A stretch of DNA of 64,000 bases, taken from a virus. This document shows positions 2,996-20,599 of the stretch, in pieces. Within the stretch, counting starts at the first letter, position 1. Every line of letters begins with the position of its first letter. The stretch lies in IMG/VR virus record IMGVR_UViG_3300025598_000020. One strand, 5' to 3'. Below the pieces are notes generated by a model that was given only the letters and a program-made list of their open reading frames with translations, was not told the DNA's origin and searched no databases. Position numbers and translations under genes: made by a program.

Positions 2996-4060
2996 TTATG
3001 TATTTGGATATTCCGTAATGGTAGTATTAATGGTGAATGGTCCAGAATTAGCCGTTTCGGTTGACATATCTTCCACACCAACATCAGTTCTTAAATCATC
3101 TGAACCAGTTTCTGATGACAAATCTTCAAATACATCACCGTAAACTGGAGAAACAACAATTTTAGCAAGTTCAATTGGTACAACTTTGTAGTTTAAAAAC
3201 TTTCTGGTTGCTTCTGATGTTTGGCCAATAATATTTTGATTTGAAACAAAATTGCCTGTCAGGTCAGAAAGAACCAAATTGTAGTTTTGATATGAAACTA
3301 CTTTACCAGTTGCTGTTGCAAATGAAGGTGATGTACCTTGATATGCAATTTCACCAATCTTATATTTTCCTGTGCCGACTTCATTCATTTCAAACAGAAC
3401 ATTATGTTCATCATCTATATTATTGTATATATTTGTGATGGATGTTTGAATTAAACCAACATTGTCATTAATGACACCAAAAATAAAACCTTTAACTGTG
3501 AAGTTTAAAGTCCAAATAACCATTCTGGTATCTGAATCTCTATCACCTTCATAAGTTACATCATATGTGGTGTTATTTAGTACAACAGGTACTTCTTTTA
3601 TGATTCCCATTTCTGGAATCATGTTAACTTTTATCGTATAATCTGGTGAAAAATATGGTAAAATATGTTCTATAATTTGATTGCCATCTTCAATATTACG
3701 AACATAAAGATAAAGACTAAAATCAAAGTTATATGGTACTGGTGTATATTGTGAGAGGTATTGTGAACCTGTATATGCAAAGTTCTTTATATTTGTTTGT
3801 TGTTTACGGCTTGCGTCATATGAAATACCGTTCATCTCATATGACATACGTGGCAAAGCCATTTGAATCTTTTTATCAAGGTTTGGATCACCTTGTAGAC
3901 GCATTACATACAATTCTTTTGTTGCATAATCCAATGGAACAATAAATCTTTCTTGTTCTGTTTCATCTGGATTATAACGAATCAACGTAATGTTATCAAA
4001 CAGATTGCCAAAAGCAACTGTTAGTTTACGAATCATTCTATTGTAAGTGGTATTAGACAT
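2996..4060 (-). CDS. gp15: Tail sheath stabiliser/terminator (T4 gp15-like) with C-terminal extension
   Basis: AFGNLFDNI, LPRMSYE, QIIEHILPYF motifs; synteny 13-14-15-16-17. Confidence 0.92.
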   Translation of the reverse strand: MSNTTYNRMIRKLTVAFGNLFDNITLIRYNPDETEQERFIVPLDYATKELYVMRLQGDPNLDKKIQMALPRMSYEMNGISYDASRKQQTNIKNFAYTGSQYLSQYTPVPYNFDFSLYLYVRNIEDGNQIIEHILPYFSPDYTIKVNMIPEMGIIKEVPVVLNNTTYDVTYEGDRDSDTRMVIWTLNFTVKGFIFGVINDNVGLIQTSITNIYNNIDDEHNVLFEMNEVGTGKYKIGEIAYQGTSPSFATATGKVVSYQNYNLVLSDLTGNFVSNQNIIGQTSEATRKFLNYKVVPIELAKIVVSPVYGDVFEDLSSETGSDDLRTDVGVEDMSTETANSGPFTINTTITEYPNT

Positions 4061-4941
4061 TATAAACCACCTATCGGATTAGTCTCAGATGTATTTAATA
4101 TCGCAGAAGCTGAACTACTAATTAAACTATTATCATATGGTTCTTTTACTGCTGGAACTTCTAGAGGATCGTATGTTGTTACAACATAACTTGCTCCACT
4201 TGTGTTACCAATAACTACTTGTCCGTCTGCAAACACACCTGAAATATTGGTTACTGCCATTTGTGATGCAGATGGAACCCAAGATTGAATTGTAGCCACA
4301 GCTGTTGCATTGGCGTAAGTATTATCAGGAGATTGAAATACCAATTCTTGTAAATTGTATGTTCCCGAACCAGTACCAGTATTCAAATGTATTGTGTAAG
4401 CCGAATCATATACAACAATGTCAATGTCCGGTATACCAGTAGAAATAACTTCTTGTGAGTATTTGAATTTCTCTAAATCCAATTCATAAAAATAAGGCAA
4501 TTTTCTACCCAATTGAAAAAAGTCTTTTGTTTGATTGGTGAATTTAATCTCATAAAGTTCACCTTGGCCATTCAAAATTGGAATATAGATTAAATCACCT
4601 TCACGTGGTCTTGTGAATGTATTTTGTGGTACTCTTTGACTGAAAGTTCTTTTAGAAACAATCACTGAAACTTGATTGCGAATTTCCAAACCAAACTTGG
4701 TAAACATTTCTCTGTCGCCATTATATTCTGTGGCATTAGAAAGATACATTTCCAACGGAAAAGCGGTATTAAATTTCTTAACCGGATCTTCACCATAAAG
4801 AAGGTCACGAGCTGCATCGTTATCATTAGGAAGATAATAAGCATTAAAACCCATAATTTTTATGGATTCTACAATTAAGTCTTCAATGATTTTTTGGTCT
4901 GGTCTAGACCCATAAAGATTAAAATATTGACTTGTTGCCAT
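4060..4941 (-). CDS. gp14: Neck protein (T4 gp14-like)
   Basis: ESIKIMG, KFGLEIRN, PREGDLIY, FFQLGR motifs. Confidence 0.92.
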   Translation of the reverse strand: MATSQYFNLYGSRPDQKIIEDLIVESIKIMGFNAYYLPNDNDAARDLLYGEDPVKKFNTAFPLEMYLSNATEYNGDREMFTKFGLEIRNQVSVIVSKRTFSQRVPQNTFTRPREGDLIYIPILNGQGELYEIKFTNQTKDFFQLGRKLPYFYELDLEKFKYSQEVISTGIPDIDIVVYDSAYTIHLNTGTGSGTYNLQELVFQSPDNTYANATAVATIQSWVPSASQMAVTNISGVFADGQVVIGNTSGASYVVTTYDPLEVPAVKEPYDNSLISSSASAILNTSETNPIGGL

Positions 4942-4942
4942 G

Positions 4943-5725
4943 TTAGTTCAAGAACCATTCTAGCGGACCGCCATAGTTTTCAATCATGTCTTTCTCTAAT
5001 CTGGCAATTTCTTCCATAGCTTCATCATAAGTTTCTTTGCCATTTAATGTGACACCACCAGGTAGTTGTAGTCCACCAAATTTTTTCATGTTCTCACCCC
5101 AAGTTCTCTTAATGAGTGCTGTGGCATATTCTTTTAACCAACGGTCATTCCATACATTTGGATACTCATTCGGATCAATTGCACCATAACATTCTGATAC
5201 AACAACTTGACCCACACCTACTTCGTAACCACTACCCCAAGCCCAATCAATATACAGTCTCTGCATATTACGTACAAAACGAATAGGAACTTCACCAGTG
5301 AACTGTAGTTCCAAAGAACGTAAGTGTTGTTGAGTTAATGTGTAATTGATGTAGGACGCAGAAGTAAAGTCATACAACTCATTTAGACGCAATTGGTATC
5401 TCAAGTCAAACATATTTATAGTTGCTTGAGAATCAGTCAAAGGAAAAATACGGGTGATACCAAGAATACTTACATTGTTACCGTTTGCATCTGTAGCTTG
5501 AGATGCATCCAGATATTGGTGAGCAATGTCATCTGCGGTAACATAGTGAATCCAGTAGAATTTTTGTGCACCATCAAAGTGGTAGTCTTGCCAGTATTGA
5601 ATAGCATCATCAATACGGTCGGATACTTGGTCTTCATCTACGTTGATATCAATGACAGGCGCACCCAGTCTACGTAAACAATAATTTGTAAAGTCTTGTC
5701 TATTTAAAATTGGTGCTGAAGCCAT
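4943..5725 (-). CDS. gp13: Neck protein (T4 gp13-like)
   Basis: LRRLGAPVIDINV, WLKEYATALIK, LPGGVTLNG. Confidence 0.95.
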   Translation of the reverse strand: MASAPILNRQDFTNYCLRRLGAPVIDINVDEDQVSDRIDDAIQYWQDYHFDGAQKFYWIHYVTADDIAHQYLDASQATDANGNNVSILGITRIFPLTDSQATINMFDLRYQLRLNELYDFTSASYINYTLTQQHLRSLELQFTGEVPIRFVRNMQRLYIDWAWGSGYEVGVGQVVVSECYGAIDPNEYPNVWNDRWLKEYATALIKRTWGENMKKFGGLQLPGGVTLNGKETYDEAMEEIARLEKDMIENYGGPLEWFLN

Positions 5726-5757
5726 GCAAAAATCTCCTGTTATTCCCTATTTATCTA

Positions 5758-7026
5758 TTAGATTTTTAGGGGACCAGGAAACCTCTCTCCTCCATCTTTT
5801 ACAGCAACCAACCACGCACTTGTGACACACACATTTAGACTTTTCAACCAATCATTTGGAAAGTGTGTTTCTCTACGATATTCTTGGAATCTAATAGATT
5901 TATTATCTATAAAACCAGCCAAATATGCATCTGTGTAATACAAGAAACTGTTTTCATTCCAATAACTTACATGAGTTGGGTCTTGAAAAGCACCACGACC
6001 ATCGGTACTCGGTACTTCAATAAATGCCCAACCACCATGTGCCAATACCCTATGTATCTCACCCATAATCTTAGTCTTGTCGTGCAAGTGTTCTAAGATA
6101 TGACTTGCATTTAATACACCAACTGAATTGTCTGGTAAAGGAATACCATTGTTTAAGTCACAAACATAATCAGCAGTATCTCTAAGGTCAACTGTTGTAT
6201 AACCTTCATATGGATTTAACCCACCACCAATGTCTACACACAATAAACCTTTATCTTTGGCATCTTTTTCTGCCAGAACTCTCGCATATTGTCTTTGTAA
6301 CTCTACAGTTTTGACTTGAATGGCTTCATTTCGTTCAAGGAAAGTATTATCTCCCGTGATTCGATATATGTATAAGACTTTTGGTACACGAACCATCTTT
6401 GTGTGTATGTAGGTTCTGATACACAATTCATGGTCATCACAGATAGAAAGTTCTGAATTGTGACCACCAATTTCTTCATATACAGTTTTACGCCAAGAAC
6501 GAACGTGGTCTGGTGCAAACCAAATGTATTGTAATGCTTGACTTGTTGGTTCAAAACTTTTCATTGCATGAAGTTCTTGACCTTTCCAGTTGAACATTTC
6601 AAATGTCCATCCGTTACCTTCATCATATGGTACAAACTCATTCTTCATGTGAAGAACTGCATTGTCACTATAAACAAAACCAACTGTATCGTCTTGGTAA
6701 GCTTTGTTCAATTCTTCTAAACAATCTGGTGTGATTAAGTCATCATGGTCCATTTCAACCAGAACATCGCCTGTGGCCAATGCAAATGCAACTCTCTTTA
6801 CTGCACCAACATTACTGTTTTTATCTTCTGTTCTAAAGATTTTAACTTGCCAGTCATCTTTTATAATGTCTGGAATGTTTTCGATAACACAATTGTTATT
6901 TAAGAATAATACCCATTCCCAGTTTTCATATGTTTGATTTCTAATAGAATCATAAAGTTCTAATAAAAACTTAATATTGTTTGGATTATGTTCGGGTGTT
7001 ATTAAACTAAACTTCAAATTTTTCAT
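5758..7026 (-). CDS. GT2-family glycosyltransferase fused to a class I SAM-dependent methyltransferase-like domain
   Basis: SLITP..SIRNQTYENWEW, DHDD (DxD), CDDHEL; C-terminal VDIGGG, SHILEHL, DPTHVSYWN. Start taken at MKNLK. Confidence 0.85.
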   Translation of the reverse strand: MKNLKFSLITPEHNPNNIKFLLELYDSIRNQTYENWEWVLFLNNNCVIENIPDIIKDDWQVKIFRTEDKNSNVGAVKRVAFALATGDVLVEMDHDDLITPDCLEELNKAYQDDTVGFVYSDNAVLHMKNEFVPYDEGNGWTFEMFNWKGQELHAMKSFEPTSQALQYIWFAPDHVRSWRKTVYEEIGGHNSELSICDDHELCIRTYIHTKMVRVPKVLYIYRITGDNTFLERNEAIQVKTVELQRQYARVLAEKDAKDKGLLCVDIGGGLNPYEGYTTVDLRDTADYVCDLNNGIPLPDNSVGVLNASHILEHLHDKTKIMGEIHRVLAHGGWAFIEVPSTDGRGAFQDPTHVSYWNENSFLYYTDAYLAGFIDNKSIRFQEYRRETHFPNDWLKSLNVCVTSAWLVAVKDGGERFPGPLKI

Positions 7027-7030
7027 AATA

Positions 7031-8704
7031 TTAATCAAAGAAGAACAAGTGTGTTAATCTACCAGTTTCATTATCTTGGCCAAAGTAATTGCCTGCCGAA
7101 TGAATGCTTTGTGCATCCATAATCACAAGTCTATTATATAAATTGCCTGCATCGGCAATAGTTTCAAACTTGGATGCATCATAGAAACCTCCTGCAAATG
7201 CACCTTCTATGTCATCATCACTCATGTGCATAGTTCCGTTTAACCTGGACCGATGCAGTCTTGTTCCTGAATCTACTGGTGCATTGGGTGTTAGATAAAT
7301 CATTGCCGCCCACTTTTGCAAGTCATGGTGGTAAACCTGTGGGTCTTCTGCCGTTACAATTTGAAAACAACCATTATGTCCGTGTTCTTCCCAATTGTTA
7401 ATCTTTTCACCAATAATAGATTCAAATGCTTCTTTTATGCCATCAAATCTAAATGGACCTGAGCGTTGTCCTTTATAATACTGAATATCTCTTTTGTATT
7501 CAGCTTGAAGTGCAATTTGTCTTACTTCATCTGGATTAGTATAAAAGTTGTCAACAACAAATAGTTTCTTTTTCATGTTCACATTTACATAAGATATTTT
7601 AGGTGGGTTCAATTTGTCTAACGCATAATTATGTAGGTCTTGTATTCTGGTGCCACCATCATGGTACATTGAACGGTCTATCATAACAACATATCTTGGA
7701 AATGCACAAGTTCTTTCCGGCTGAATCATGATTGATGTATACTTTAACATACTTTCATAATCACCCAACTCATTATATGTGTGTGCTAAACCCCACCAGT
7801 GGTCATTTCTTCCTGTGGCAAATCTGTCTGCATCAAGAAATGTTTGTATTGCTTCATCAACATCACCAATAAATTTCAAACATTCGGCCGAAAATATCTT
7901 GGCCATGTAACACATTTCATCTTCACCTTGTACATTTCTATGGAATACGTATTCGTTGAAATAGTAAATACAACGTCTGGCAAACTCTTTTCTTTGTGTT
8001 TCACCTAATGGAAATGAATGTTCTTGATATGCATCAAAGTAACTTTTACCAATGTACCAAAAATGATACCAATCGGTTAGTATAGAGTTTTCTTTAATCA
8101 TCTTTTCTTCTAAGATGAGTGCATCAGAAATAAATTTGGTTGGATTTGACCAACTCTGGCCTTCATTGAAACCAATTTGTCTGATTGTTAATGGTAAATC
8201 TACACGTTGAAAGTTTTCACCTGTGACGCCATCATCAAGATAGATTGTTTCGTGGCACGGATCATGGTTGAAACGCCATTTCAATTTGGCATTCCACATC
8301 CATGCACGATAATAAACACTTGAACCTGCTACTGCTGGTATATGAAATGATTGTATTGAAGTATCATCAAGTAAGGACCAATCAAAGTCATCATCGATTT
8401 CTAAGACTTCATCACAATCCATCTTAAGAATCCAATCACAACCGTGTTCAATATTTTGTGTATATTGAATTAAGTGGTCACGATTCCAACCAAAGCCAAC
8501 CCATCCTTCTTCTACATCGTAAAGAACACCTGGTATTTGTTTTTCTGTAAAGAAGTCTTTAACAATTTGGTCTGTACCGTCTGTTGAACCGTTGTTTTGT
8601 ATTACGAAATAATCAATATATTTGTAACATGATTCCAACATTCTTCTCATCACCGATGCTTCATTACGAAACATGGTGGTCATAACAATTTTCACCTTCT
8701 TCAT
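7031..8704 (-). CDS. GT2-like glycosyltransferase + TPR-like region + C-terminal 2OG-Fe(II) oxygenase-like (DUF6445-like) domain
   Basis: FRNEA..GSTDGT..MDCDE GT-A core; helical middle region; C-terminal VVDNFY..HHD..YLTPNAP..SGT..YNRLVI..H..R..LFFFD. Start taken at MKKVK. Confidence 0.8.
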   Translation of the reverse strand: MKKVKIVMTTMFRNEASVMRRMLESCYKYIDYFVIQNNGSTDGTDQIVKDFFTEKQIPGVLYDVEEGWVGFGWNRDHLIQYTQNIEHGCDWILKMDCDEVLEIDDDFDWSLLDDTSIQSFHIPAVAGSSVYYRAWMWNAKLKWRFNHDPCHETIYLDDGVTGENFQRVDLPLTIRQIGFNEGQSWSNPTKFISDALILEEKMIKENSILTDWYHFWYIGKSYFDAYQEHSFPLGETQRKEFARRCIYYFNEYVFHRNVQGEDEMCYMAKIFSAECLKFIGDVDEAIQTFLDADRFATGRNDHWWGLAHTYNELGDYESMLKYTSIMIQPERTCAFPRYVVMIDRSMYHDGGTRIQDLHNYALDKLNPPKISYVNVNMKKKLFVVDNFYTNPDEVRQIALQAEYKRDIQYYKGQRSGPFRFDGIKEAFESIIGEKINNWEEHGHNGCFQIVTAEDPQVYHHDLQKWAAMIYLTPNAPVDSGTRLHRSRLNGTMHMSDDDIEGAFAGGFYDASKFETIADAGNLYNRLVIMDAQSIHSAGNYFGQDNETGRLTHLFFFD

Positions 8705-8705
8705 T

Positions 8706-9284
8706 TTATCTCCACTTGGGCCCATCAAACCATGCGGCTATACTGTATCTTTTTCCTTTGGTTACTTTGCCTGCCTTGTGTCTTAACATTGAAGGAAAGA
8801 ATATAGCAGTTCCTTGTTCTCTGACATCTGGGTCAAGTGATTGAGTTGCTTCTGTGATAGTAAAATCTCCACCCTCATAATCAATATTTGGGTTAGATAA
8901 CTGAATGACACAGGATAATTTTCTGTGATAATCTGGATCATTATTCAACCAAAATACATCGTGGTGTTCTTTATATTCACCTTCATATGCTGCATCATAT
9001 TCAGCAAACTGAACAAACTCTAATTTGGAAATGTGAACGTTGAAGAAGTCTCTGTTGGCTTCAATAGCCATTTTCCACAAGTCATCAAACAACCAAGTGA
9101 AATTTGGGTCTTTGTCACTTAGAAATGTGACTCTACTTTTGCGAATAGAAGTATCTACTGCTGTACTGATACCATTAACGCCAACAACGGCATCTTGAGA
9201 TGGTAATTTCAATGCATCATTTATAAGTTTATAACAAGTATTAGCATCATAACGATGCTTAAAATAACACCACTCACCCTTCAT
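8706..9284 (-). CDS. 2OG-Fe(II) oxygenase, prolyl-4-hydroxylase/PKHD-like
   Basis: HHD..RKLS..YEGGDF..FFPS..H..GKRYSIAAW (HxD...H...R). Confidence 0.9.
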   Translation of the reverse strand: MKGEWCYFKHRYDANTCYKLINDALKLPSQDAVVGVNGISTAVDTSIRKSRVTFLSDKDPNFTWLFDDLWKMAIEANRDFFNVHISKLEFVQFAEYDAAYEGEYKEHHDVFWLNNDPDYHRKLSCVIQLSNPNIDYEGGDFTITEATQSLDPDVREQGTAIFFPSMLRHKAGKVTKGKRYSIAAWFDGPKWR

Positions 9285-9291
9285 AACAACC

Positions 9292-10596
9292 TCACAATTT
9301 TGAATTCAAATAATCTATTTGTGCCTTTTGCTCTTTCAATGCTTCAATCAAAAGTGGTACAACTCTTTCATACATAACGGTCAAATAATTTTCACCAGAA
9401 ATGCTGTTACCATATTTATCTGTGTCAAAGGGAGCCTTTTCAATGACTTCTGGTAACACATCGTTAATTTCTTGTGCAATCAAACCAACTTCACGTTCGT
9501 TTCCTTGATAACCAAACGACCTAGCCAAATCATTTTTAGTGTAGTAAACACCATTCAATGTCATAACTTTTTCAAGTGCTTGATTGATTTTGTTTATAAT
9601 ATCTTTTAGTCTACCATCAGAATAGTATGCAGTGATATTACCTGTTGCTTGAATTGTACCTGTTGGTCCAGCAGATGTATTAACACCTAAAGCTGAAACT
9701 TGTGTTGGTGCCGGACCAGTTGGGCCTGTTGATCCTTGTGGTCCCTGAGCACCAGTTGGGCCTGGACTGCCAGTGCTACCTGTTGGTCCAGTGGCTCCAG
9801 TTGGACCTGTAGGTCCTGGTGAACCTGTGGGTCCAGTTGGTCCAGGTGCTCCTTGATAACCAGATGGTCCAGTACCACCTTGTGGTCCCTGAGCACCAGG
9901 TGAACCTGTTGTGCCGGTTGAACCTTGTGGTCCCTGAGCACCAGATGTGCCAGCAGGTCCTTGTGTGCCTTGAAATCCAGAAGGTCCAGTAGAACCTTGT
10001 GGTCCTTGTGGTCCTGGATTACCTTGTGCACCGGAAGAACCTTGTGGTCCTTGAGCACCGGGAGAACCAGCTGGACCTTGTGTACCTTGGAAACCAGAAG
10101 GTCCAGTGCTACCCGTAGTTCCTTGTGCACCTGGTGTTCCAGTTGTGCCCGTACTTCCTTGTGGTCCTTGAGCTCCAGTAGAACCTTGAGGTCCTTGTGT
10201 GCCTTGAAATCCAGAAGGTCCTGTACTACCAGTAGAACCTTGAACACCGGCAGGTCCTTGTGCACCGGTTGGACCCTGAGGTCCTTGTGCACCAGACGCA
10301 CCAGTAGGTCCTTGAGTACCTTGAAAACCTGCTGGTCCTGTACTACCAGTAGAACCTTGAACACCCACAGGTCCTTGTGTTCCTGCCGGACCTTGCGGAC
10401 CCTGAGCACCAATAGTGCCAGCTGCACCTTGAGCACCTTGAACTCCTTGTGGTCCTTGTGCACCAACAGTGCCTTGAGGTCCTTGTGGTCCTAAAATGTT
10501 CGTTGTAGAACCAACCCAAACACCATTTGCTGCAACGACTGATGTAGTACCAACAGTCAATCCATTTTTAACTACAAAATTATTTGCTGTTGCCAT
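9292..10596 (-). CDS. Collagen-like fibre protein C with C-terminal peptidase S74 intramolecular chaperone
   Basis: About 87 Gly-X-Y triplets from Gly36; YYSDGRLKD cleavage motif, GLIAQE, C-terminal coiled coil. Confidence 0.92.
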
Positions 10597-11908
10597 TTAC
10601 TTTTTCCATTAATTTTGCAATTGTTTGTTGTTGTTCTTTAATTGCTTCTACAAGAACTGGTATCAATTTGTGATAATGAACTGTTAGATAGTTTTGACCA
10701 GATTTACTTTTTCCATTCTCATCTACGTCAAAAGGAGCTGGTACAACAATTTCAGGTATATGTGTTTGAATTTGTTGAGCTATAACACCAACATGTCTTG
10801 TTAAATCTCTTTTGTAACCAAATTTTTCTGCATGTCTATTTTGACTAAAATAAATTCCACTCAAAGACATAACTTTTTCCAATGCACCATCAATATTGCC
10901 AATAATATCTTTCAGTCTTCTATCTGAATAATAAGCAATAATGTTACCTGATGCTTGAATCGAACCTGTTGGTCCTGCTGGTGCAGAACCTACACCAAGA
11001 GCGGATATGTTTGGTGTAGATGTTGTTGTTACACTTCCAGTTGCACCGGTTGGTCCAGTACTACCAGTGGGTCCTTGTGCGCCTGATGGTCCTGTAGGAC
11101 CAGTAGAACCTTGTACACCTGAAGGACCAGGTGATCCAGTAGGTCCAGTGGAACCTTGTGCACCACTACCACCTTGTGGTCCTTGAAATCCTGATGGACC
11201 TGTACCTCCGGTTGAGCCGGTTGAACCTTGTACACCGGCTGGTCCTGGACTACCAGTTGACCCTGTTGTTCCTGTTACACCAGTTGTTCCTTGTGGTCCT
11301 TGGAAACCAGAAGGTCCTGTGCCGCCTGTGGCACCAGTTGATCCTTGAACACCAGCAGGTCCTGTACCTCCAGTTGCGCCTGTTGTACCTGTTGTGCCAG
11401 TTGGTCCTTGTGGACCTTGAAAGCCAGAAGGTCCGGTACTACCTGCACTACCTTGAACACCTTGAAAACCAGCAGGTCCGGTACTTCCCGTAACACCTGT
11501 TGTTCCTGTTGCACCTGTTGGTCCTTGTGGACCTTGGAAACCAGATGGACCTGTTGGTCCTTGAGTACCTTGAAATCCAGAAACACCTGTTGTTCCAGTG
11601 CTACCTGTAGTACCTTGAACACCTGAAGCGCCAGTTGGCCCCTGAGGACCTTGGAAACCAGATGGACCTGTTGGTCCTTGAGTACCTTGAGCACCAGGTG
11701 AACCTTGTGCACCTGAACTTCCTGGTGTTCCATTTGTTCCTTGCACACCGGCCGCGCCTTGAACTCCTTGTGGTCCTTGTGCACCTGGACTTCCTGTTGG
11801 TCCAGTATAAGAAGATGCTGCTGAAATCCAGACACCATTGGCTGCAATAACTGGAGTTGTACCTACAGTTAGTCCATTCTTAGCGACAAAATTATTTGCT
11901 GTTGCCAT
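10580..11908 (-). CDS. Collagen-like fibre protein B with S74 chaperone
   Basis: About 86 Gly-X-Y triplets from Gly36; [15 protein letters not shown]. Confidence 0.92.
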
Positions 11909-11909
11909 C

Positions 11910-13220
11910 TTACTTTAGTCTCTCTTCCAGAGATTCTATTTCTCTTTGTTGTTCTTTGATTGTCTCTATGATTAAAGGAATTAATAATTCATATTGTACT
12001 GTTAGGTAGTATTCTCCAGATTTGCTGCCGTCTTTTCCATCATTGTCAAATGGTGCACGTTTAATTACTTCAGGTAAAACTTTATGTACCTCTTGTGCAA
12101 TCACACCAACATAATTTTTATCATCGGTGTACCCATATTTTTTTGCAAGTTCATTATTTTTATAAATGATACCACTTAATGTGTATAATTTTTCAGCAGC
12201 ATTATTGATTGTTTCAATGTTATCTTTTAATCTTATGTCTGAGAAATATGCCGTGATGTTATTTGTTGCAACAATTTGGCCTGTTGTTGTTACTGCAGCA
12301 GTACCAACACCCAAATATGTGGCTGTTGTGCCTAATGTTCCGCTAGGGCCAGTTGCACCTTGATATCCTGATGGTCCTGTGCCGCCAGCTGGACCTTGTG
12401 CGCCTGGTGAACCTGTTGGTCCTCCACCACCCTGAGCACCAGGTGAACCTGTTGGTCCTGTAGGTCCTTGTGCACCTGTTGGTCCAGGAGAGCCAGTAGA
12501 ACCTTGTCTGCCAGCTGGTCCGGGAGAACCAGTTGGTCCTTGAGTGCCTTGATAACCGGATGGTCCAGTAGGACCTTGAACACCTTGGAAACCAGATGGT
12601 CCAGGAGAACCAGTAGAACCTTGTTGACCTGCTGGTCCAGGAGTTCCAGTTGGTCCAGGTGGTCCTTGATAACCTGATGGTCCAGTGGAACCTTGAACAC
12701 CTTGAACACCAGAAGGTCCAGTGGAACCTGTTGGTCCTTGAAAGCCTGATGGACCTTGTGCGCCTGCTGGTCCCGGAGCACCTTGTCTGCCAGCCGAACC
12801 TTGAGTGCCTTGAGCACCTTGAACACCTGCGGGACCAGTACTACCTGTTGGACCTTGAGCACCTGGTGTTCCTGTAGGTCCTTGAGCACCTTGAGCACCT
12901 TGGAAACCAGATGGTCCAGTAGAACCTTGAGCACCTTGTACGCCAGAAGGTCCAGGTGAACCTGTTGGTCCTTGAGCACCTGATGTACCTGTGGAACCTT
13001 GAGCACCAGGAGAACCTTGACTTCCTTGTGGACCGTTAGACCCTAATGTACCTTGTACACCTTGAGGACCCTGAGCTCCTTGTGCACCAGAAGTACCAGT
13101 AAATCCTTGTGGCCCAGTAATATTAGTACCAGGTCCAGTCCATTGTCCGGAAGAATTGATGACATTTGTAGTATTTACGGTTAAACCGTTCTTAACTACA
13201 AAATTAATTTGAGTTGCCAT
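11910..13220 (-). CDS. Collagen-like fibre protein A with S74 chaperone
   Basis: About 88 Gly-X-Y triplets from Gly36; [15 protein letters not shown]. Confidence 0.92.
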
Positions 13221-13251
13221 TAAGGTTCACTATCCCCTTTTTATTATAATC

Positions 13252-13259
13252 TATTTATT
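13252..13259 (-). promoter_or_regulatory. T4-type late promoter-like box (AATAAATA) upstream of the collagen operon
   Basis: nATAAATA in a short intergenic gap; similar boxes at 19-26, 5748-5755, 18297-18304, 23257-23264, 33969-33976 and 47996-48003; late coactivator gp33 is in the window. Confidence 0.6.
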
Positions 13260-16200
13260 AGACTGAGATTGTATCCCTAACAAGATTGATTGTCATTGAT
13301 GTTGCACTTACTGGATTAATTAATAAACTTAATGTAGAACCAGAAATTGATGCGTCAAAAGTTCCAAGAATAGTACCTGTTGTAACTTCACCATACTGTG
13401 TTAAGTAAGCTGTAGTGCCGTTTTGTATCAACAATAATTCAATCGTATGATAGTTGCTGCCTTGTGTCATTTGTACCAAATATTTGGCCGTGCGATATGT
13501 TGATGTTGACCAAGTATCAATTGCAGTTTGTGATGTTGTTGCAGTTGTAGATTGAACAATTGTTGTGTTAACTGTAGCAGAACTGTTTGTAATTGCAACT
13601 GAGTTTGATGTTGTTGTACCAACTACTGTTAATTTGGTTGTAGGCGAACTCGTCCCAATACCCAGACCTGTGCTGGTCAGGCGCATTTGTTCGGCGTTGT
13701 TTAAAGTAAAAACTGTATAAGCAGGTGAATCAAGTTTTAATCCATTGACATTTGTGTAATCTGCTTGAACAGAATAAACTCCTGAATCATTCCATATTTT
13801 GCCAATAGTTGCTGCGCCGCCATTGCCTTGCTGGATAGTTCCATTTACAAAAAATGTTGACCCATTCCACGTCAGCGCAGAACCATTAACCACATAACCT
13901 GTACCATTCGCATACATCACGCCATTGTTTGTGAAACCTGATGCAGCAAGCTTGGTGTTTGCGGTTGCAAATGCACCATTGGCATATACGCCTGCACTGT
14001 TAGCTGTATTATATGCAGAATTGGCCTGAACAAAAGAAGCGTTTGCTTGTACAAAGATTGAATTTGAAAAACTAAATGGTGCAGCTGCCGTATTTTGTGA
14101 TGTAGAATCAGCAAATTTGATTGGTAAATTCTTCATTACCAAACCAACATTATTCTTAAATCTTGCTATTTCATTACCAGTATTAACACCATTTGCAGTA
14201 AAGATAATGTCGTTTGGTGCACCTGTAGCAATAATCATGTTACCGCCGCCGGTATTTGTGTTGCCATAAGCAATCAAATATCCGTCATTTGGTCCAATCA
14301 TTGTGTAACCACTATAATTGTATGTACTACTACCCATACCTAAGTCAAGGAATGTATCGCTTGCAGTACCATTATCGGGTGTAATAAAGATATCAAAAGA
14401 AGCATTGTTGCCGCTATTGATATTTTGCATGTTAAGTCCAGAGTAACCGTTATAGTTACTGGACATTTGGAATACCATCTGAGGTTCTAAGAAGTAACCT
14501 GATGGGATACCAGCGTATAATGCACCAAAACCGTTTGAGGATGAACCAAAGAATTGACCAGTATTACCTGTGATGGTTGAATTGATTACATTACCGGTAA
14601 AATTAATATTACCACTAACTGTTAAGTTACCATTGATTGTGGTGTTACCAGAAATTGTACCACCAGTAGATGAGAACTTAGTATTAGCAACAGTAAAGGC
14701 ACCATTAGCATATACACCAGCAGAAATTGCTGTAGAGTTGGCTATATTTGCTACTAAAAATGCAGAGTTGGCATATACACCAGCAGAGTTAGCAGTATTG
14801 AAGGCCGCATTTGCTTGTACAAAAGCACCATTAGCATATATGCCTGCTGAGTTTGCTGTTAGATAAGATGAGTTGGCATAAGAACCTGCACTATTGGCAG
14901 CCGTAAATGCCGAGTTGGCATAAGAACTGGCTGAAGCTGCATTGGTAGTTGCAGTATTTGCTTGTGTGTATGCTGAGTTAGCATATGAACTTGCTGCAGC
15001 TGCATTGGTTACAGCTGTATTTGCCTGATTAAATGCCGAGTTGGCATAAGAACTGGCGGCACCTGCATTGGTTACAGCTGTATTTGCTTGTGTGTATGCT
15101 GAGTTAGCATATACACCAGCAGAAATTGCTGTAGAGTTGGCTATATTTGCTACTAAAAATGCAGAGTTGGCATATACACCAGCAGAAATTGCTGTAGAGT
15201 TGGCTGTATTTGCTACTAAAAATGCAGAATTGGCATAAGAACTGGCCGCACCAGCATTGGTTACAGCTGTATTTGCTTGGTTATATGCTGAATTAGCTTC
15301 TGCAAATGCACCGTTAGCATATGAACTGGCCGCAGCTGCGTTAGATATTGCAGTATTTGCCTGAGTGTATGCTGAATTGGCATAAGAACTGGCTGCAGCT
15401 GCATTGGTTACAGCTGTATTTGCTTGGTTATATGCAGAGTTTGCTTCAGCAAAAGCACCATTTGCATACGAAGCTGCAGCAGATATGTTTGTATTTTGTG
15501 TTGCATCGACACCAGTTTGTAAAGTGAACTGAGTATTAGCATAGTTATAAGCTGAATTGGCATATGAACCTGCTGATAATGCATTTGCATTGGCAGTATT
15601 TGCTTGGTTGTAAGCTGCATTGGCTTCTGCGAAAGCACCGTTAGCATAAGAAGATGCAGAAGCAATATTAGTATTTTGTGTTGCATCTATACCAGTTTGT
15701 AAAGTGAACTGGGTATTAGCATAGTTATAAGCTGAATTGGCTTCTGCGAAAGCACCGTTAGCATATACGCCGGCCGAGTTTGCAGTTGAAAATGCAGAGT
15801 TAGCATAAGAACTTGCAGAGACTGCATTATTTGCAGCGGTATTGGCAGCCGTAAATGCTGAATTGGCATATGAACTTGCTGCAGCTGCATTGGTTACAGC
15901 TGTATTTGCCTGATTAAATGCCGAGTTGGCATAAGAACTGGCTGCAGCTGCATTGGTTATAGCTGTATTTGCTTGTGTATAAGCTGAATTAGCAATATCT
16001 CTTGCAACATTATCAATTGCCGAACCACCACTAATTGTATTGGCAAAAGCATACACTATATTTGCCAAGGCAAAAGCACCATTGGCATATATGCCAGCAG
16101 AGTTAGCAGTTGAAAATGCACTATTAGCATAAGAACCAGCTGCATTTGCAGTTGAATATGCTGAATTGGCTTCGGCAAAAGCACCGTTAGCATATATGCC

Positions 16201-18270
16201 AGCAGAGTTAGCAGTTGAAAACGCAGAGTTGGCATATGAACTGGCTGCAGCTGCATTTGTGGTTGCAGTATTTGCCTGATTAAATGCTGAATTAGCATAA
16301 GAACTGGCTGCAGCTGCGTTGGTTACAGCTGTATTTGCAGTTGAATATGCAGAGTTTGCTTCTGTAAATGCACCATTAGCATATAAAGCTGCACTGTTAG
16401 CTGTACTATATGCCGAATTGGCTTCTACGAATGCCGCATTAGCTTGTACAAAGATTGAATTTGAGAAACTAAATGGCGCAGCTGCCGTATTTTGTTTAGT
16501 GGAATCTGCAAAAGTGAGTGGTAAAGATTTTAATACAAGACCCGTATTGTATTTGAAACGAGCAATTTCATTACCTGTTGTTGCACCATTTGCAGCAAAA
16601 ATGATATCTTTTGGTGTATTTGTATAAAATATTAAATTACCACCACCGGTTGTTGTATTACCTGAAGCATAAACATAACCATCATTCGGTCCAAACAAAT
16701 TATAGTTTGGATTTGAGTATGTTGAACTTGTAATACCCATGTCAATATAACCATCATTTGCAGTACCGTTGTCGGATGTTGCAGTATAATCGGCCGTTGC
16801 ATTGGCACCATTGTTCAGATTTTGCAAGTTTATCTGTACATAATCACCATAATTACCACTTGATTGTATAATTGTTTGTGGTTCAAAAGTAAATCCTGTT
16901 GGAACACCAGCATACAAAGCGCCAAAACCATTTGCACTTGTACCAAAAAATTCACCAGTGTTACCGGAAATTGTTTGATTGATAACGTTACCGGTATATG
17001 TAATGTTACCTGTAACACTCAAATCACCGGAAATAGTGACATTACCAGAAATTGTACCACCGGTAGATGAGAACTTACTATTGGCAGTATTGAAGGCCGC
17101 ATTTGCTTGTACAAAAGCACCATTAGCATATATGCCAGCAGAGTTTGCTGTTAGATAAGCTGAGTTGGCATATGCGCCAGCAGAATTGGCTGCTGTGAAA
17201 GCACTATTGGCATAAGAACTGGCTGCAGTTGCATTAGTTGCAGCGGAGTTAGCCTGAGTGTATGCTGAATTGGCATAAGAACTGGCTGCAGCTGCGTTGG
17301 TAGTTGCCGTATTGGCCTGAGTGTATGCTGAATTGGCATATGAAGATGCTGCTAACGCATTGGTTACAGCTGTATTTGCTTGTGTGTAAGCAGAGTTGGC
17401 ATAAGAACTGGCTGCAGCTGCATTGGTTACAGCTGTATTTGCTTGTGTATAAGCTGCATTGGCTTCCGCAAAAGCACCATTTGCATATGATGCTGCCGAA
17501 GTAATATTAGTATTTTGCGTTAAGTCTACACCAGTTTGCAAAGTGAACTGGGTATTAGCATAATTGTATGCAGAATTTGCTTCTGCAAATGCCCCATTAG
17601 CATAAGAAGATGCGGAGTTTGCAGTTATAAAAGCAGAGTTGGCATAAGAACTAGCCGCACCAGCATTGGTAGTTGCCGTGTTTGCTTGGTTATATGCAGA
17701 GTTGGCAGTTAATCTTGCAACATTATCAATTGCCGAACCACCACTAATTGTATTGGCAAAAGCATACACTATATTTGCCAAGGCAAAAGCACCATTGGCA
17801 TATACACCAGCAGAAGTTGCTGTAGAATTTGCAAGATTGGCTTCTGCATATGCTGAATTGGCTTGAACAAACGCTGCATTGGCCTGTATGAATGCTGGTT
17901 GTGCATATGTGCCTGCATTGTTGGCAGCATTGAAGGCTGCGTTAGCTTGTAAAAATGCTAAATTGGCCTGATTGTATCCATTACCTGCTAATACGAATGC
18001 ACTATTAGCTTCTATAAATGCTGCATTGGCATATGCACCAGCAGAATTGGCTGCTGTGAAAGCTAAATTGGCTTGTATAAAACTTGAATTGGCTTCAGAA
18101 AATAAAACGTTTACAGTATTTTGTGTAGCAATATAGTGACCGCCTCTGGTCACACCGTCTTGTAATACTAAAGTGTTGGCTTGTGTATCAACAGTAAGTT
18201 CACCAATGACACCAGTAAATGCCGCAATCTGTGATGTATTACCTCGTCTTAATTGTAATTGTGTTGACAT
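13258..18270 (-). CDS. Very long tail fibre with Mtd-like N-terminus, Ala/Asn-rich helical repeats and a duplicated globular domain
   Basis: LQLRRG..GELTVDT N-terminus; dozens of ANSAY/FxxANxA repeats; two similar domains of about 210 aa. Confidence 0.85.
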   Translation of the reverse strand: MSTQLQLRRGNTSQIAAFTGVIGELTVDTQANTLVLQDGVTRGGHYIATQNTVNVLFSEANSSFIQANLAFTAANSAGAYANAAFIEANSAFVLAGNGYNQANLAFLQANAAFNAANNAGTYAQPAFIQANAAFVQANSAYAEANLANSTATSAGVYANGAFALANIVYAFANTISGGSAIDNVARLTANSAYNQANTATTNAGAASSYANSAFITANSASSYANGAFAEANSAYNYANTQFTLQTGVDLTQNTNITSAASYANGAFAEANAAYTQANTAVTNAAAASSYANSAYTQANTAVTNALAASSYANSAYTQANTATTNAAAASSYANSAYTQANSAATNATAASSYANSAFTAANSAGAYANSAYLTANSAGIYANGAFVQANAAFNTANSKFSSTGGTISGNVTISGDLSVTGNITYTGNVINQTISGNTGEFFGTSANGFGALYAGVPTGFTFEPQTIIQSSGNYGDYVQINLQNLNNGANATADYTATSDNGTANDGYIDMGITSSTYSNPNYNLFGPNDGYVYASGNTTTGGGNLIFYTNTPKDIIFAANGATTGNEIARFKYNTGLVLKSLPLTFADSTKQNTAAAPFSFSNSIFVQANAAFVEANSAYSTANSAALYANGAFTEANSAYSTANTAVTNAAAASSYANSAFNQANTATTNAAAASSYANSAFSTANSAGIYANGAFAEANSAYSTANAAGSYANSAFSTANSAGIYANGAFALANIVYAFANTISGGSAIDNVARDIANSAYTQANTAITNAAAASSYANSAFNQANTAVTNAAAASSYANSAFTAANTAANNAVSASSYANSAFSTANSAGVYANGAFAEANSAYNYANTQFTLQTGIDATQNTNIASASSYANGAFAEANAAYNQANTANANALSAGSYANSAYNYANTQFTLQTGVDATQNTNISAAASYANGAFAEANSAYNQANTAVTNAAAASSYANSAYTQANTAISNAAAASSYANGAFAEANSAYNQANTAVTNAGAASSYANSAFLVANTANSTAISAGVYANSAFLVANIANSTAISAGVYANSAYTQANTAVTNAGAASSYANSAFNQANTAVTNAAAASSYANSAYTQANTATTNAASASSYANSAFTAANSAGSYANSSYLTANSAGIYANGAFVQANAAFNTANSAGVYANSAFLVANIANSTAISAGVYANGAFTVANTKFSSTGGTISGNTTINGNLTVSGNINFTGNVINSTITGNTGQFFGSSSNGFGALYAGIPSGYFLEPQMVFQMSSNYNGYSGLNMQNINSGNNASFDIFITPDNGTASDTFLDLGMGSSTYNYSGYTMIGPNDGYLIAYGNTNTGGGNMIIATGAPNDIIFTANGVNTGNEIARFKNNVGLVMKNLPIKFADSTSQNTAAAPFSFSNSIFVQANASFVQANSAYNTANSAGVYANGAFATANTKLAASGFTNNGVMYANGTGYVVNGSALTWNGSTFFVNGTIQQGNGGAATIGKIWNDSGVYSVQADYTNVNGLKLDSPAYTVFTLNNAEQMRLTSTGLGIGTSSPTTKLTVVGTTTSNSVAITNSSATVNTTIVQSTTATTSQTAIDTWSTSTYRTAKYLVQMTQGSNYHTIELLLIQNGTTAYLTQYGEVTTGTILGTFDASISGSTLSLLINPVSATSMTINLVRDTISV
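14700..18100 (-). repeat. Degenerate repeat tracts encoding ANSA(Y/F)xxAN(T/S)A units (7/14/21-aa multiples), interrupted by one globular domain
   Basis: Near-identical nucleotide units such as ggcataagaactggctgcagctgcattggttacagctgtatttgc recur many times. Confidence 0.85.
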
Positions 18271-18934: not shown

Positions 18935-20599
18935 TTATCCTATGTAAGCCACAGACCAATTGTCGTTGCTATCAAATATGATTGTACCAGAACTTGCAAT
19001 TAATTGTAGTGTATCGCCTACCGCCAGTTTCACAATGTTGGCGCCACCGGCATGGTTCATTGAAGTGTTTGGACCAAATTCAACCATAATACAAGTTGTT
19101 GTCCCACCACCAATTGCAGCAGTTTTTCTAACTAAGGCTTGAGCAATACCACTTGAACTATTATTATATGTTCTAATCACTAAATTAACTTGATATAAAC
19201 CTGCAACAGGCGCTGTAAATATACCAGTAGTTCCGTTCAGGTAACTTCCTTGATTATATTCAATATTCCAATTGCTATTCGTTAATGTGTTTGAGGAAGC
19301 AACTGAGCCACCATTACCTCTTACACAAAATGCTGGACGATTTGGTGCATAACCAGCAGCAATACCGTTTGTTGTTGTATTACCTGCAAGTGTTAAGTCG
19401 CCCGCATCACTCAAAGAAAATGATGTTATTAGGTATGCACTATTAACAACTTGTAATTCACCAACAGAACTTAAACGGATTGTTTTGTTTCCGTTTGTTG
19501 CGCCAGCAGATGTATTTGTAAATTTTAATACATCTGCATAACCTGTACCACCAATTGTATTGGCTGCAGTAATAGACAATCCTGAACCTGTTGTTGTGAC
19601 AGGTTGATATGTTATACTTACATTTCCTGTTATACTTCCACCAGTGTTTGCAAGTGCGTTGTTTGCTTTGGAGAAAGCACTATTAGCATATGAACCAGCT
19701 GAGTTTGCGGCAGTAAATGCTGAGTTTGCATAAGAACTGGCCGCATTAATAGAGTTATTTTGTGTAAGTTCTATGCCTGCTAAATTCACCGTATTGGATG
19801 CTGCGGTATTAGCTGCCGTAAATGCTGAATTGGCATAGGCACCAGCAGAATTAGATGCTGTGAAAGCTGAATTGGCATAAGATCCAGCACTATTAGCAGT
19901 TGAAAATGCACTATTAGCATAAGAACCAGCTGCATTGATGGAACTGTTTTGTGTTAATTCAATACCCACCAAATTAACAGTATTGGATGCTGATGTATTG
20001 GCTGCATTAAATGCCGCATTGGCTTGTGCAAAGATACTATTAGAATATAGTAATAATTCTACACCGCTGTCATAGATTGTATTTGAACTAACACTATTGA
20101 ATGTAGAAGTTGTGACATTACTTTGAGCACCAGTTGGTCCAAATTCTGCCCATATTGGATATGCCGTGTTGCCAAAGTTTTCATACATTACACCTGTATT
20201 AGAATTCAACCACAAATCGTTTGAATTTGGATTACTTGGTGCAGTATTTTGATAATATGTTTGTGTTTTTGCATTGGCTGCTGAGTAGACAATACTGCCA
20301 TCTAATGTAATTGTCTTACTAGTAGTATTAGCAAAAACACCAATACCATTTGCGCCTTTGAAACTTAGAGTGTCTGTGTTAGATGTTGCAAGTATTAGTG
20401 AACCAGATACGTTCATTGTTGAGAACGAATTGGTAAACTGACCGCTAGAGATATATGTTATTGTACCTGTAGCATTTTTATAATACAACTTTCCATCGTA
20501 GTAGTTAAGTGCCAACTCACCATAATTTAGTGATGCTGGTACGTTACCTGATACGCCAGATTTTCTTAGTTGAATTGTTGTATTTGCAATTGTTGCCAT
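18935..20599 (-). CDS. Tail fibre with T-even distal-fibre-like N-terminus and C-terminal C1q-like domain
   Basis: IQLRKS..GELALN N-terminus; C-terminal PAF..TGIFTAPVAGLYQV..VKLAVGDT. Confidence 0.75.
   Translation of the reverse strand: MATIANTTIQLRKSGVSGNVPASLNYGELALNYYDGKLYYKNATGTITYISSGQFTNSFSTMNVSGSLILATSNTDTLSFKGANGIGVFANTTSKTITLDGSIVYSAANAKTQTYYQNTAPSNPNSNDLWLNSNTGVMYENFGNTAYPIWAEFGPTGAQSNVTTSTFNSVSSNTIYDSGVELLLYSNSIFAQANAAFNAANTSASNTVNLVGIELTQNSSINAAGSYANSAFSTANSAGSYANSAFTASNSAGAYANSAFTAANTAASNTVNLAGIELTQNNSINAASSYANSAFTAANSAGSYANSAFSKANNALANTGGSITGNVSITYQPVTTTGSGLSITAANTIGGTGYADVLKFTNTSAGATNGNKTIRLSSVGELQVVNSAYLITSFSLSDAGDLTLAGNTTTNGIAAGYAPNRPAFCVRGNGGSVASSNTLTNSNWNIEYNQGSYLNGTTGIFTAPVAGLYQVNLVIRTYNNSSSGIAQALVRKTAAIGGGTTTCIMVEFGPNTSMNHAGGANIVKLAVGDTLQLIASSGTIIFDSNDNWSVAYIG

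Follow-up and report, generated by a model that had tools for sequence, protein, structure and literature searches.

The 64,000-nucleotide stretch of DNA analysed here, referred to below as the window, comes from IMG/VR virus record IMGVR_UViG_3300025598_000020 and belongs to an uncultured T4-like myovirus. Its minus strand carries six consecutive genes (Table 1) that constitute a candidate collagen-maturation cassette. The first three encode collagen-like chains (ColA, ColB and ColC) ended by a Peptidase_S74 (S74) domain. The others encode a 192-residue oxygenase dependent on 2-oxoglutarate and Fe(II) (2OG oxygenase) and two fusion proteins in which a family 2 glycosyltransferase (GT2) is joined either to tetratricopeptide repeats (TPR) and a DUF6445 domain (565 aa) or to a methyltransferase (426 aa, hereafter GT2-MT). 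The original prediction, drawn from the letters of the window, had proposed this very set of three collagens, one oxygenase and two GT2 fusions, and all six genes were found on the minus strand where it had placed them.

Table 1. Features of the collagen cassette and of the neighbouring neck region in the window
Feature	Position	Strand	Evidence or remark
ATAAATA late-promoter-like box	13252..13258	-	38 nt 5' of ColA start codon
ColA, 436 aa: N-terminal domain of 35 aa, 88 Gly-X-Y triplets, S74	11910..13220	-	Pfam Collagen 9e-40, Peptidase_S74 7e-12
ColB, 442 aa: 86 triplets and S74	10580..11908	-	Pfam, tract statistics
ColC, 434 aa: 87 triplets and S74	9292..10596	-	Pfam, tract statistics
192-aa 2OG-Fe(II) oxygenase, PHD/P4H (prolyl hydroxylase domain/prolyl 4-hydroxylase) fold	8706..9284	-	Pfam 2OG-FeII_Oxy_3, E 1e-14
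565-aa fusion: GT2 (~10-245), TPR (~250-340), DUF6445 2OG oxygenase (~376-565)	7031..8728	-	Pfam; PDB profile
426-aa fusion: GT2 and class I S-adenosylmethionine (SAM) methyltransferase (likely ATG start 7026)	5758..7038	-	Pfam
Next ATAAATA box, 29 nt 5' of gp13; end of the six-gene unit	5748..5754	-	
gp13 neck protein	4943..5725	-	Pfam T4_neck-protein; homologues in relatives labelled Phage_T4_gp13
gp14	4060-4941	-	
gp15	2996-4060	-	Pfam T4-gp15_tss

On all three chains, Pfam detects both Collagen (PF01391; E 1e-36 to 5e-41, 125-139 bits against a cut-off of 27.2) and Peptidase_S74 (E 2e-9 to 7e-12, 38-46 bits against a cut-off of 22); each chain is a repeat protein, and each retains the Ser/Lys pair of the S74 domain. 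The chains start with a shared N-terminal domain of 35 residues, including the motif F-V-(V/A)-K-N-G-L-T-V, which is followed from residue 36 by a single unbroken Gly-X-Y tract. The S74 motif SDxRLK then occurs at residue 327 in ColA (SDIRLK), 328 in ColB (SDRRLK) and 326 in ColC (SDGRLK). The composition of the tracts is the one announced by the original prediction. They are nearly free of charge, with 2 charged residues at the 176 X/Y positions of ColA and none at the 172 and 174 positions of ColB and ColC, and contain no Lys. Position X is often occupied by Pro (29, 26 and 33 times in ColA, ColB and ColC), which is less frequent at Y (11, 5 and 7). The main residues at Y are Gln (34/27/38), Thr (22/36/25) and Ser (11/11/7), Thr or Ser standing at 37-55% of the Y positions. 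A period of 13 triplets (117 nt), marked by GPSG(F/Y)QG, runs throughout the three collagen genes. Between chains, identity amounts to 57-59% in the tract (63-66% for the DNA), 47-54% in the S74/C-terminal domain and 54-69% in the N-terminal domain; judged from their sequences, ColA, ColB and ColC are old paralogues.

The six genes are tightly packed, with junctions of +1, -17, +7, -23 and -8 nt, the start of the 565-aa fusion being uncertain (TTG at 8728, ATG at 8725 or ATG at 8704). The late-promoter-like box that had been proposed to head them is present as the heptamer ATAAATA, but the exact T4 consensus TATAAATA is absent there. The same heptamer is located 29-38 nt upstream of seven minus-strand starts (5725, 13220, 18270, 22439, 23226, 26383 and 47967) and is probably the late-promoter core of this phage, one base shorter than that of T4. 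Since ATAAATA precedes ColA and gp13, the latter box being the next one downstream, and none is found between ColA and the last enzyme gene, the cassette looks like a single late transcription unit. A scan for sigma-70 promoters and terminators performed no better than on shuffled sequences, and yielded no operon boundaries.

The 192-aa oxygenase carries H107, D109, H169 and R179, which form the HxD...H...R signature and are invariant in 46 homologues. Its AlphaFold (AF2) model, with a predicted local distance difference test (pLDDT) score of 87.6, matches the structures of the Pseudomonas putida P4H with EF-Tu (Z 19.6), PHD2 (Z 18.0), the Chlamydomonas P4H with (Ser-Pro)5 (Z 17.9) and the vCPH of PBCV-1 (Z 17.0). 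The root-mean-square deviation from 4iw3 is 2.7 over 180 residues, and all top 30 matches are prolyl hydroxylases. With a double-stranded beta-helix (DSBH) fold, the iron triad and a 2OG-binding Arg, the enzyme falls within the prolyl 4-hydroxylase clade. The initial description as a P4H/PKHD-type oxygenase can thus be kept as regards the fold (Z 17-19.6), but the nearest enzymes are hydroxylases of the EF-Tu/HIF type, and the gene is also located beside non-collagen fibres. Compared through this model, collagen P4Hs (Z 17.0-17.9) and the PHD/EF-Tu type (Z 18.0-19.6) cannot be separated by fold.

The Glycos_transf_2 family is recognised in both fusions (33.8 and 55.8 bits against a cut-off of 23.3), each being a GT2 with a DxD motif. 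In the 565-aa fusion, the motif DCD (D104, D106) and the residues H467, D469, H543 and R557 are invariant in homologues. The best PDB match of its GT2 part is GmaR, a weak one (E 1.5e-5 over ~95 residues), and its TPR segment matches consensus TPRs in the PDB profile search (E 3e-13). DUF6445 (PF20043) is found with 37.4 bits for a cut-off of 24. As a sequence search of this domain against the PDB returned no meaningful match, its fold had to be predicted. Modelled alone (pLDDT 94), DUF6445 adopts a DSBH with the invariant HxD...H...R, and its best structural neighbours are OGFOD1 (Z 13.7) and PHDs (Z ~13), followed by the sugar and natural-product oxygenases AviO1, HygX and PolD (Z ~12). No paper mentioning the DUF6445 family was found in the literature. 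In NCBIfam, no name is available for the 565-aa fusion and only GT2 names far below threshold for the 426-aa fusion.

The latter protein, GT2-MT, combines Glycos_transf_2 (7e-15) with Methyltransf_11 (4e-8; 34.2 bits against a cut-off of 21.2), its C-terminal half being a class I SAM-dependent methyltransferase. The DHDD motif (97-100) and G271/G273 of VDIGGG (SAM motif I) are invariant in homologues. In the PDB profile search, the GT2 part matches TarP/TarS (1e-8) and GalT1 (1e-7). Across homologues, the catalytic motifs are kept in all five enzyme domains of the cassette.

Relatives in other phages were collected by an enzyme-based search of IMG/VR and public assemblies, which returned more than 90 loci (numbered with the prefix L), many of them close relatives of each other. 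The full order, i.e. three collagen-S74 genes, the small oxygenase, often an additional oxygenase of 234 aa, GT2-TPR-DUF6445, GT2-MT and gp13, is found in dozens of phage contigs with enzyme identities of 57-93%. The co-occurrence of collagen-S74 genes with these enzymes, put forward as a check of the original prediction, is borne out, since a collagen-S74 gene ends less than 1.5 kb upstream in 25 of the 26 loci having both GT fusions and at least 2.5 kb of upstream sequence. In a variant found in L097-L100, a collagen/S74 fibre is followed by an Oxy_3 oxygenase, a stand-alone DUF6445 protein, optionally an NDP-sugar epimerase/dehydratase, GT2-MT and gp13. Such variants reshuffle the fusions, yet the association with collagen stays. 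The 234-aa oxygenase (2OG-FeII_Oxy_3/Oxy_4) is nested between the 192-aa and GT2-TPR-DUF6445 genes in most relatives (L009-L012, at 10578-11282; most of L017-L078) and is absent from the window and from its three closest relatives.

The small oxygenase is also found by itself. When the 30 loci that carry this gene but not the GT pair are considered, a long collagen lies close by in 13; several of the others have S74 fibres of 14-39 triplets, and the rest non-collagen fibres or unrelated neighbours. The 192-aa enzyme might then be a hydroxylase of some translation factor of the host or of a different phage protein, in the manner of Pseudomonas PPHD (EF-Tu) or OGFOD1/Tpa1 (uS12), only the GT fusions being linked to collagen. 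This is regarded as unlikely. Indeed, the ranking of its structural matches, in which collagen-type P4Hs come slightly below the P. putida P4H with EF-Tu and PHD2, fits such a role, but Z gaps of 1-2 inside one fold clade assign no substrate. Likewise, the family is very widespread (675 homologues, with 325 phage records, mostly cyanophages) and occurs without collagen nearby, but at 50% identity or more the gene is nearly always the next one after an S74-terminated fibre, often with a collagen segment, and this in several gene arrangements. The collagens of the oxygenase-only loci, which have no GT, are Pro-rich (median 63% Pro at X), which also speaks for a collagen substrate. Two further points favour the non-collagen role: the enzyme is absent from the bacterial collagen/GT2-MT loci described below, bar one weak match among the 80 listed, and a related 2OG oxygenase has been reported in a cyanophage virion proteome (PMC12801897). 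As a separate observation, L013, from a more distant T4-like phage, carries the small oxygenase upstream of gp13 (7610-9809), together with a tryptophan-halogenase-like gene, a 2OG-FeII_Oxy_5 gene, three Gly_rich_2 proteins and a non-collagen S74 fibre.

GT2-MT is not restricted to phages. When a GT2-MT alignment was run against prokaryotic genomes, one for each species, at least 80 full-length homologues (37-53% identity) were obtained. Their hosts include Actinomycetota (Micromonospora, Luedemannella, Streptomyces, Gryllotalpicola), Planctomycetota, Beta-, Gamma- and Deltaproteobacteria (Thiothrix, Thiolinea, Casimicrobiaceae), Bacteroidota (Mucilaginibacter), Chlamydiota, Bdellovibrionota and others. 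Among the 80 homologue loci listed, 56 include a collagen-like open reading frame (ORF) of at least 40 triplets within 1.1 kb of GT2-MT, at a median distance of 180 nt. Of the 46 listed loci flanked on each side by at least 2.5 kb, 35 have such an ORF within 1.5 kb. No collagen ORF of this length was found in the 471 kb of flank located more than 3 kb away from GT2-MT. Pfam confirms Collagen in two loci, those of Mucilaginibacter (collagen followed by a Kelch propeller) and Thiolinea, in which the remaining neighbours are housekeeping genes; in Thiolinea, they include LpxB and RNase HII, and a DUF6445 protein is adjoining. DUF6445 homologues are adjacent to GT2-MT in seven of the 80 loci listed. 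In five genomes checked over their whole length, the linked gene is the sole collagen gene in two, and the other three each have one further, unlinked collagen.

This bacterial linkage is independent of phage genome architecture and is the strongest evidence that GT2-MT may work on, or with, collagen-like proteins. The presence of its homologues beside collagen genes in many bacterial phyla is new in this analysis, and the searchable literature, queried for phage collagen with a hydroxylase or GT among other subjects, yielded no description of the bacterial GT2-MT/collagen pair or of the present cassette. Some of the bacterial collagens show peculiar C-terminal ends. Collagen ORFs of Thiothrix/Thiolinea are found in L114, L121, L125 and L131, and the GT2-MT-linked Thiothrix proteins end in a Gly/Trp/Cys tail, e.g. 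GGGCDWGWGWGWC; the linked collagens of Planctomycetota have in common a conserved C-terminal domain ending ...RFPRKTRDQMLRNNAFW...

The collagens associated with GT2-MT are characterized by the residue at position Y. In those linked to it in bacteria, Gln occupies Y in 21-91% of the triplets (median 60%), whereas the three unlinked collagens of the same genomes, with no GT2-MT within 7-8 kb, have 16%, 15% and <7%. In phages, the per-locus median of Gln at Y is 0.50 with GT2-MT (n=35), 0.43 with only a distant GT2-TPR-DUF6445 relative (n=4) and 0.02 with the small oxygenase alone (n=16), the tracts of these last loci being GP(T/S)-rich (Mann-Whitney p = 8e-8, for loci that are not independent). 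The cyanophage S-CRM01, the one cultured phage with GT2-MT, carries this gene as g90, 50 kb from its collagens g13, g20 and g23, which have 53-67% Gln at Y; in S-PRM1, which has oxygenases only, the collagen has 7%. From these medians, the unlinked controls and S-CRM01, it follows that GT2-MT goes with Gly-X-Gln collagens.

Linked bacterial tracts can be devoid or nearly devoid of Thr/Ser (0% in Micromonospora, 3-5% in Mucilaginibacter), and Pro is entirely missing from those of the Thiothrix group, in which DUF6445 occurs as well. The original prediction had the phage hydroxylating, glycosylating and possibly methylating its own collagen. Its core is well supported by comparison, in that the enzymes belong functionally with the collagen genes, as indicated by the 25 of 26 phage loci, the bacterial adjacency and the late unit. 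The chemistry that it specified, hydroxyproline and glycans on Thr/Ser, finds no support in the form proposed. Elsewhere the partner collagens of GT2-MT can have 0-5% Thr/Ser or 0% Pro, so that neither Thr/Ser glycosylation nor Pro hydroxylation can be what GT2-MT or DUF6445 does in general. In the present phage, whose tracts offer both residues, the two reactions may nevertheless take place. As the whole story for the core enzyme GT2-MT, hydroxyproline plus Thr-glycan is unlikely. A hydroxylysine route was considered and rejected, the three tracts having no Lys and those of the relatives examined 0-1. The window showed neither rhamnose nor anthrose genes.

The bacterial and Gln data also bear on the idea that the enzymes act on something else than the collagens. 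The GTs and oxygenases would then lie in the fibre region only because this part of T4-like genomes is plastic and hypervariable, and their target might be the lipopolysaccharide or surface glycans of the host, for superinfection exclusion or receptor masking, or a different protein of the virion. GTs of pelagimyophages and cyanomyophages in the tail-fibre hypervariable region have been read as O-antigen modifiers (PMC7029224). The GT2 domain of GT2-MT is also closest to GT2s of wall teichoic acid and polysaccharides (TarP/TarS, chondroitin synthase), TuaG and WcaA being far below cut-offs. Moreover, the GT pair stands in a non-structural context in L006-L008, and the GT2-MT of S-CRM01 among early and metabolic genes. 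However, positional coincidence cannot explain why GT2-MT adjoins collagen genes in unrelated bacterial chromosomes with housekeeping neighbours, nor why its presence predicts Gln at Y of the collagen even when both are unlinked, as in S-CRM01. Expression late and together with structural genes also agrees better with virion maturation than with an early change of the host surface. A target other than the collagens is judged improbable. DNA modification, another conceivable role of the cassette enzymes, is unlikely because of the late structural context and of the bacterial collagen linkage.

Gene linkage alone cannot tell a substrate from a binding partner, and the enzymes could produce a methylated glycan, either free or linked to lipid, that serves as ligand or anchorage for a collagen fibre not itself covalently modified. 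The GT2 folds, which resemble polysaccharide synthases, and the lectin-like or propeller C-terminal domains of several bacterial partner collagens, e.g. Kelch in Mucilaginibacter, would suit this possibility. It is nonetheless very improbable: a phage particle has neither membrane nor wall to hold such a glycan, the composition of the tracts co-varies with the enzyme, and the fusion of TPR to GT2 and oxygenase suggests a polypeptide substrate, the same GT2 and TPR plan being that of the flagellin O-GlcNAc transferase GmaR.

The three collagen chains are themselves kept as a set. Tract length ranges between genomes from ~60 to ~200 triplets and is matched within genomes, as established on 16 distinct ones (e.g. 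88/86/87, 121/122/122, 99/99/97, 144/144/138 and 202/196/201). The in-genome intraclass correlation coefficient is 0.96, and none of 20,000 shuffles was as tight as the observed lengths. The 42 post-collagen (S74) domains of 14 genomes, placed in a maximum-likelihood tree, fall into three clades of 14 with strong support, each with exactly one chain per genome. The third gene always encodes the same S74 type (one clade in 14/14 genomes, support 100/99), and the first two types exchange order; the S74 domain of ColB belongs to an ancient clade distinct from those of ColA and ColC. Recent gene conversion was examined as a cause of the length matching and rejected because the chains are well diverged (only 63-66% DNA identity between tracts, ancient S74 types). 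Length matching and the retention of one chain per S74 type are read as the trace of selection on a three-component fibre, the product of which would be either an A-B-C heterotrimer or three homotrimers of equal length. By analogy with procollagen C-propeptides, the S74 domains would have to sort the chains in either assembly. The parallel between S74 domains and the procollagen C-propeptide, drawn from the outset, is reasonable, every genome having retained a single chain of each ancient S74 type.

Taken together, a phage collagen fibre with dedicated modifying enzymes appears as the best explanation of the cassette, with a confidence of about 0.6, and the chemistry by which the phage probably modifies these fibres would differ from the one known for animal collagen. 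The six genes would represent a late-expressed module making and maturing a collagen-like virion fibre. In this scheme, the S74 domains would nucleate and select trimers from the C-terminus and then cleave themselves off as a procollagen C-propeptide does, and the heterotrimer, or the three co-assembling homotrimers, would be attached near the neck. The co-transcribed PHD/P4H-fold oxygenase, GT2-TPR-oxygenase and GT2-methyltransferase would modify the chains while they fold or earlier, the TPR of the second possibly holding the unfolded collagen chain. GT2-MT would be the core collagen-dedicated enzyme, since it accompanies collagen genes in many bacterial phyla too, and its partner collagens would be defined by Gly-X-Gln triplets rather than by Pro or Thr/Ser. 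From such an enzyme and such partners, the collagen chain would likely receive a glycan that is either methylated or accompanied by a methyl group. Thr/Ser could serve as acceptor in this phage; Gln is the only residue common to all partners. Gln itself may be the acceptor, or Gln-rich helices may simply require a glycan at another site of the protein.

A bolder version of this proposal can be formulated. As Gln at Y is the only tract feature common to all partner collagens, GT2-MT, with DUF6445 where present, could install a modification not previously described for collagen on Gly-X-Gln collagens, possibly on the Gln side chain (N-glycosylation or N-methylation). The maturation system would then be conserved from many bacterial phyla to phages, and the S74 types would specify an obligate A-B-C heterotrimer, the first heterotrimeric collagen of prokaryotes or viruses. 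As a whole, this version is speculative and rather doubtful.

Several observations weigh against a fibre with dedicated enzymes. The case rests wholly on gene linkage and folds, and many of the phage loci are closely related, so that their counts are not independent. In L006-L008, relatives of the GT pair at 47-51% identity are found among ThyX, RNR and GT4 with no collagen, these loci being fragments 15-31% complete. In bacteria, 11 of the 46 fully flanked loci among the homologues listed have no long collagen nearby. As regards the oxygenases, the closest structures of the 192-aa enzyme hydroxylate EF-Tu and HIF, not collagen, and its family, at 50-57% identity, is also found near non-collagen fibres or no fibre (L013, L059/60, L079/80, L091/92). 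DUF6445 ties with sugar and natural-product oxygenases (Z ~12) and may act on a sugar rather than on a protein. The fibre itself raises two points: length matching is loose in some genomes (75/58/62 and 168/140/165 triplets), which fits a strict heterotrimer poorly, and some relatives hold only one or two collagen genes, which counts against a strictly obligate heterotrimer.

Around the cassette, the minus strand carries the terminase gp17 and gp16, then gp15, gp14 and gp13, and further along baseplate genes (gp6-like, gp8-like and wedge-like) and several fibre genes. The cassette is flanked by gp13 and by a fibre gene encoding a 1670-aa Mtd_N/alanine-zipper protein (13258-18270). The gp15 protein is 37-42% identical to gp15 of Synechococcus myophages. 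Megablast of the region against 50,697 phage records gave no match at the DNA level, so relatives are found only at the protein level. Two minus-strand products, encoded at 2154-2984 and 13258-18270, start with an Mtd_N (major tropism determinant N-terminal) domain, and the second one, of 1670 aa, contains long Ala/Asn/Ser-rich 'alanine-zipper' repeats. Another protein of the fibre region (554 aa, 18935-20599, minus strand) has a weak C-terminal match to the C1q domain (E 2e-4), slightly below the Pfam cut-off. A protein with a TnsA-like endonuclease N-terminal domain (E 4e-26) is encoded at 48001-48435 on the plus strand, where the minus- and plus-strand structural blocks switch. Finally, a complete tmRNA gene is located at 58423-58814 on the minus strand (Rfam beta_tmRNA, 134 bits against a cut-off of 84, overlapped by a match to the permuted tmRNA model), with the tag peptide ANDEKFALAA according to ARAGORN. 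This betaproteobacterial tmRNA type gives a hint that the phage may infect a betaproteobacterium and not a cyanobacterium.

The cassette points to a bacteriophage lineage with a complete candidate collagen-maturation system, one enzyme of which accompanies Gly-X-Gln collagens widely among bacteria. Should the modification prove real, it would account for the stabilisation or shielding of triple helices that lack charge and are poor in Pro, help to understand the tuning of neck or tail fibres by phages, and reveal a new family of protein-modifying enzymes that act on a simple, repetitive substrate, a family of interest to work on recombinant collagen materials. With three chains retained together and matched in length, the existence of a heterotrimeric prokaryotic collagen is directly testable, and cultured carriers are available in phage S-CRM01, Thiothrix eikelboomii ATCC 49788, Mucilaginibacter flavidus and species of Gryllotalpicola (among them G. 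daejeonensis JCM 17590), Luedemannella and Micromonospora.

Collagens of prokaryotes and phages are usually described as mostly unmodified homotrimers, stabilised by charge pairs or polar residues, and the only viral collagen maturation treated there is that of mimivirus (review PMC8968730). Among collagens encoded by viruses, enzymes of maturation are known only in giant viruses of eukaryotes. Mimivirus hydroxylates and glycosylates its own collagen (PMC8968730). Its L230 protein, a lysyl hydroxylase-glucosyltransferase, and the animal LH3 (PLOD3) have, like the phage, a GT joined to a 2OG-Fe(II) oxygenase, and in mimivirus, too, the collagen is encoded by the virus. The DUF6445 model aligns to the hydroxylase domains of L230 (Z 11.0) and LH3 (Z 10.2). 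The phage differs from both in that its tracts have no Lys, its nearest folds are prolyl and not lysyl hydroxylases, its GT is a GT2, its host is bacterial and a methyltransferase is added.

As for the 192-aa oxygenase, its fold and HxD...H...R motif are found in PBCV-1 vCPH, Chlamydomonas P4H-1, the P4H of Bacillus anthracis and the alpha subunit of animal collagen P4H (C-P4H). In the animal enzymes C-P4H alpha and P3H1, the catalytic domain is combined with a peptide-binding domain of TPR type, an arrangement also seen in the 565-aa fusion. Classical C-P4H acts on Pro at position Y, whereas Pro of the phage is mostly at X, and the nearest structures are PHDs of the EF-Tu/HIF type. The plan of the 565-aa fusion, GT2 plus TPR, is also that of GmaR, the flagellin O-GlcNAc transferase of Listeria. 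Glycosylation of virion proteins by phage-encoded GTs is known from mycobacteriophage (Freeman et al. 2023, as cited in PMC12801897). Unlike the phage cassette, neither of these two systems includes an oxygenase or a collagen.

The glycans of BclA include methylated deoxy-sugars made by nearby genes. BclA of Bacillus and the BclA proteins of Clostridioides difficile form collagen-like surface filaments with O-glycans (PMC8968730, PMC7743900). Their tracts are GPT-rich, whereas those of the phage are G-X-Q-rich.

For the fibre itself, S74 domains are C-terminal trimerisation domains of endosialidases and phage tail fibres, from which they cleave themselves off. In the cassette, by contrast, they cap a pure collagen stalk and are present in each genome as three paralogous types retained together, a pattern suggesting that they select chains much as procollagen C-propeptides do. 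The slot directly upstream of gp13, occupied here by the cassette, is that of wac (fibritin) on the T4 map. T4 fibritin is a trimeric fibre with a C-terminal folding nucleus, and complement C1q is a heterotrimer whose A, B and C chains are length-matched collagens encoded by three tandem genes. With both fibritin and C1q, the likeness of the cassette is an analogy of position and logic, no sequence relationship being expected.

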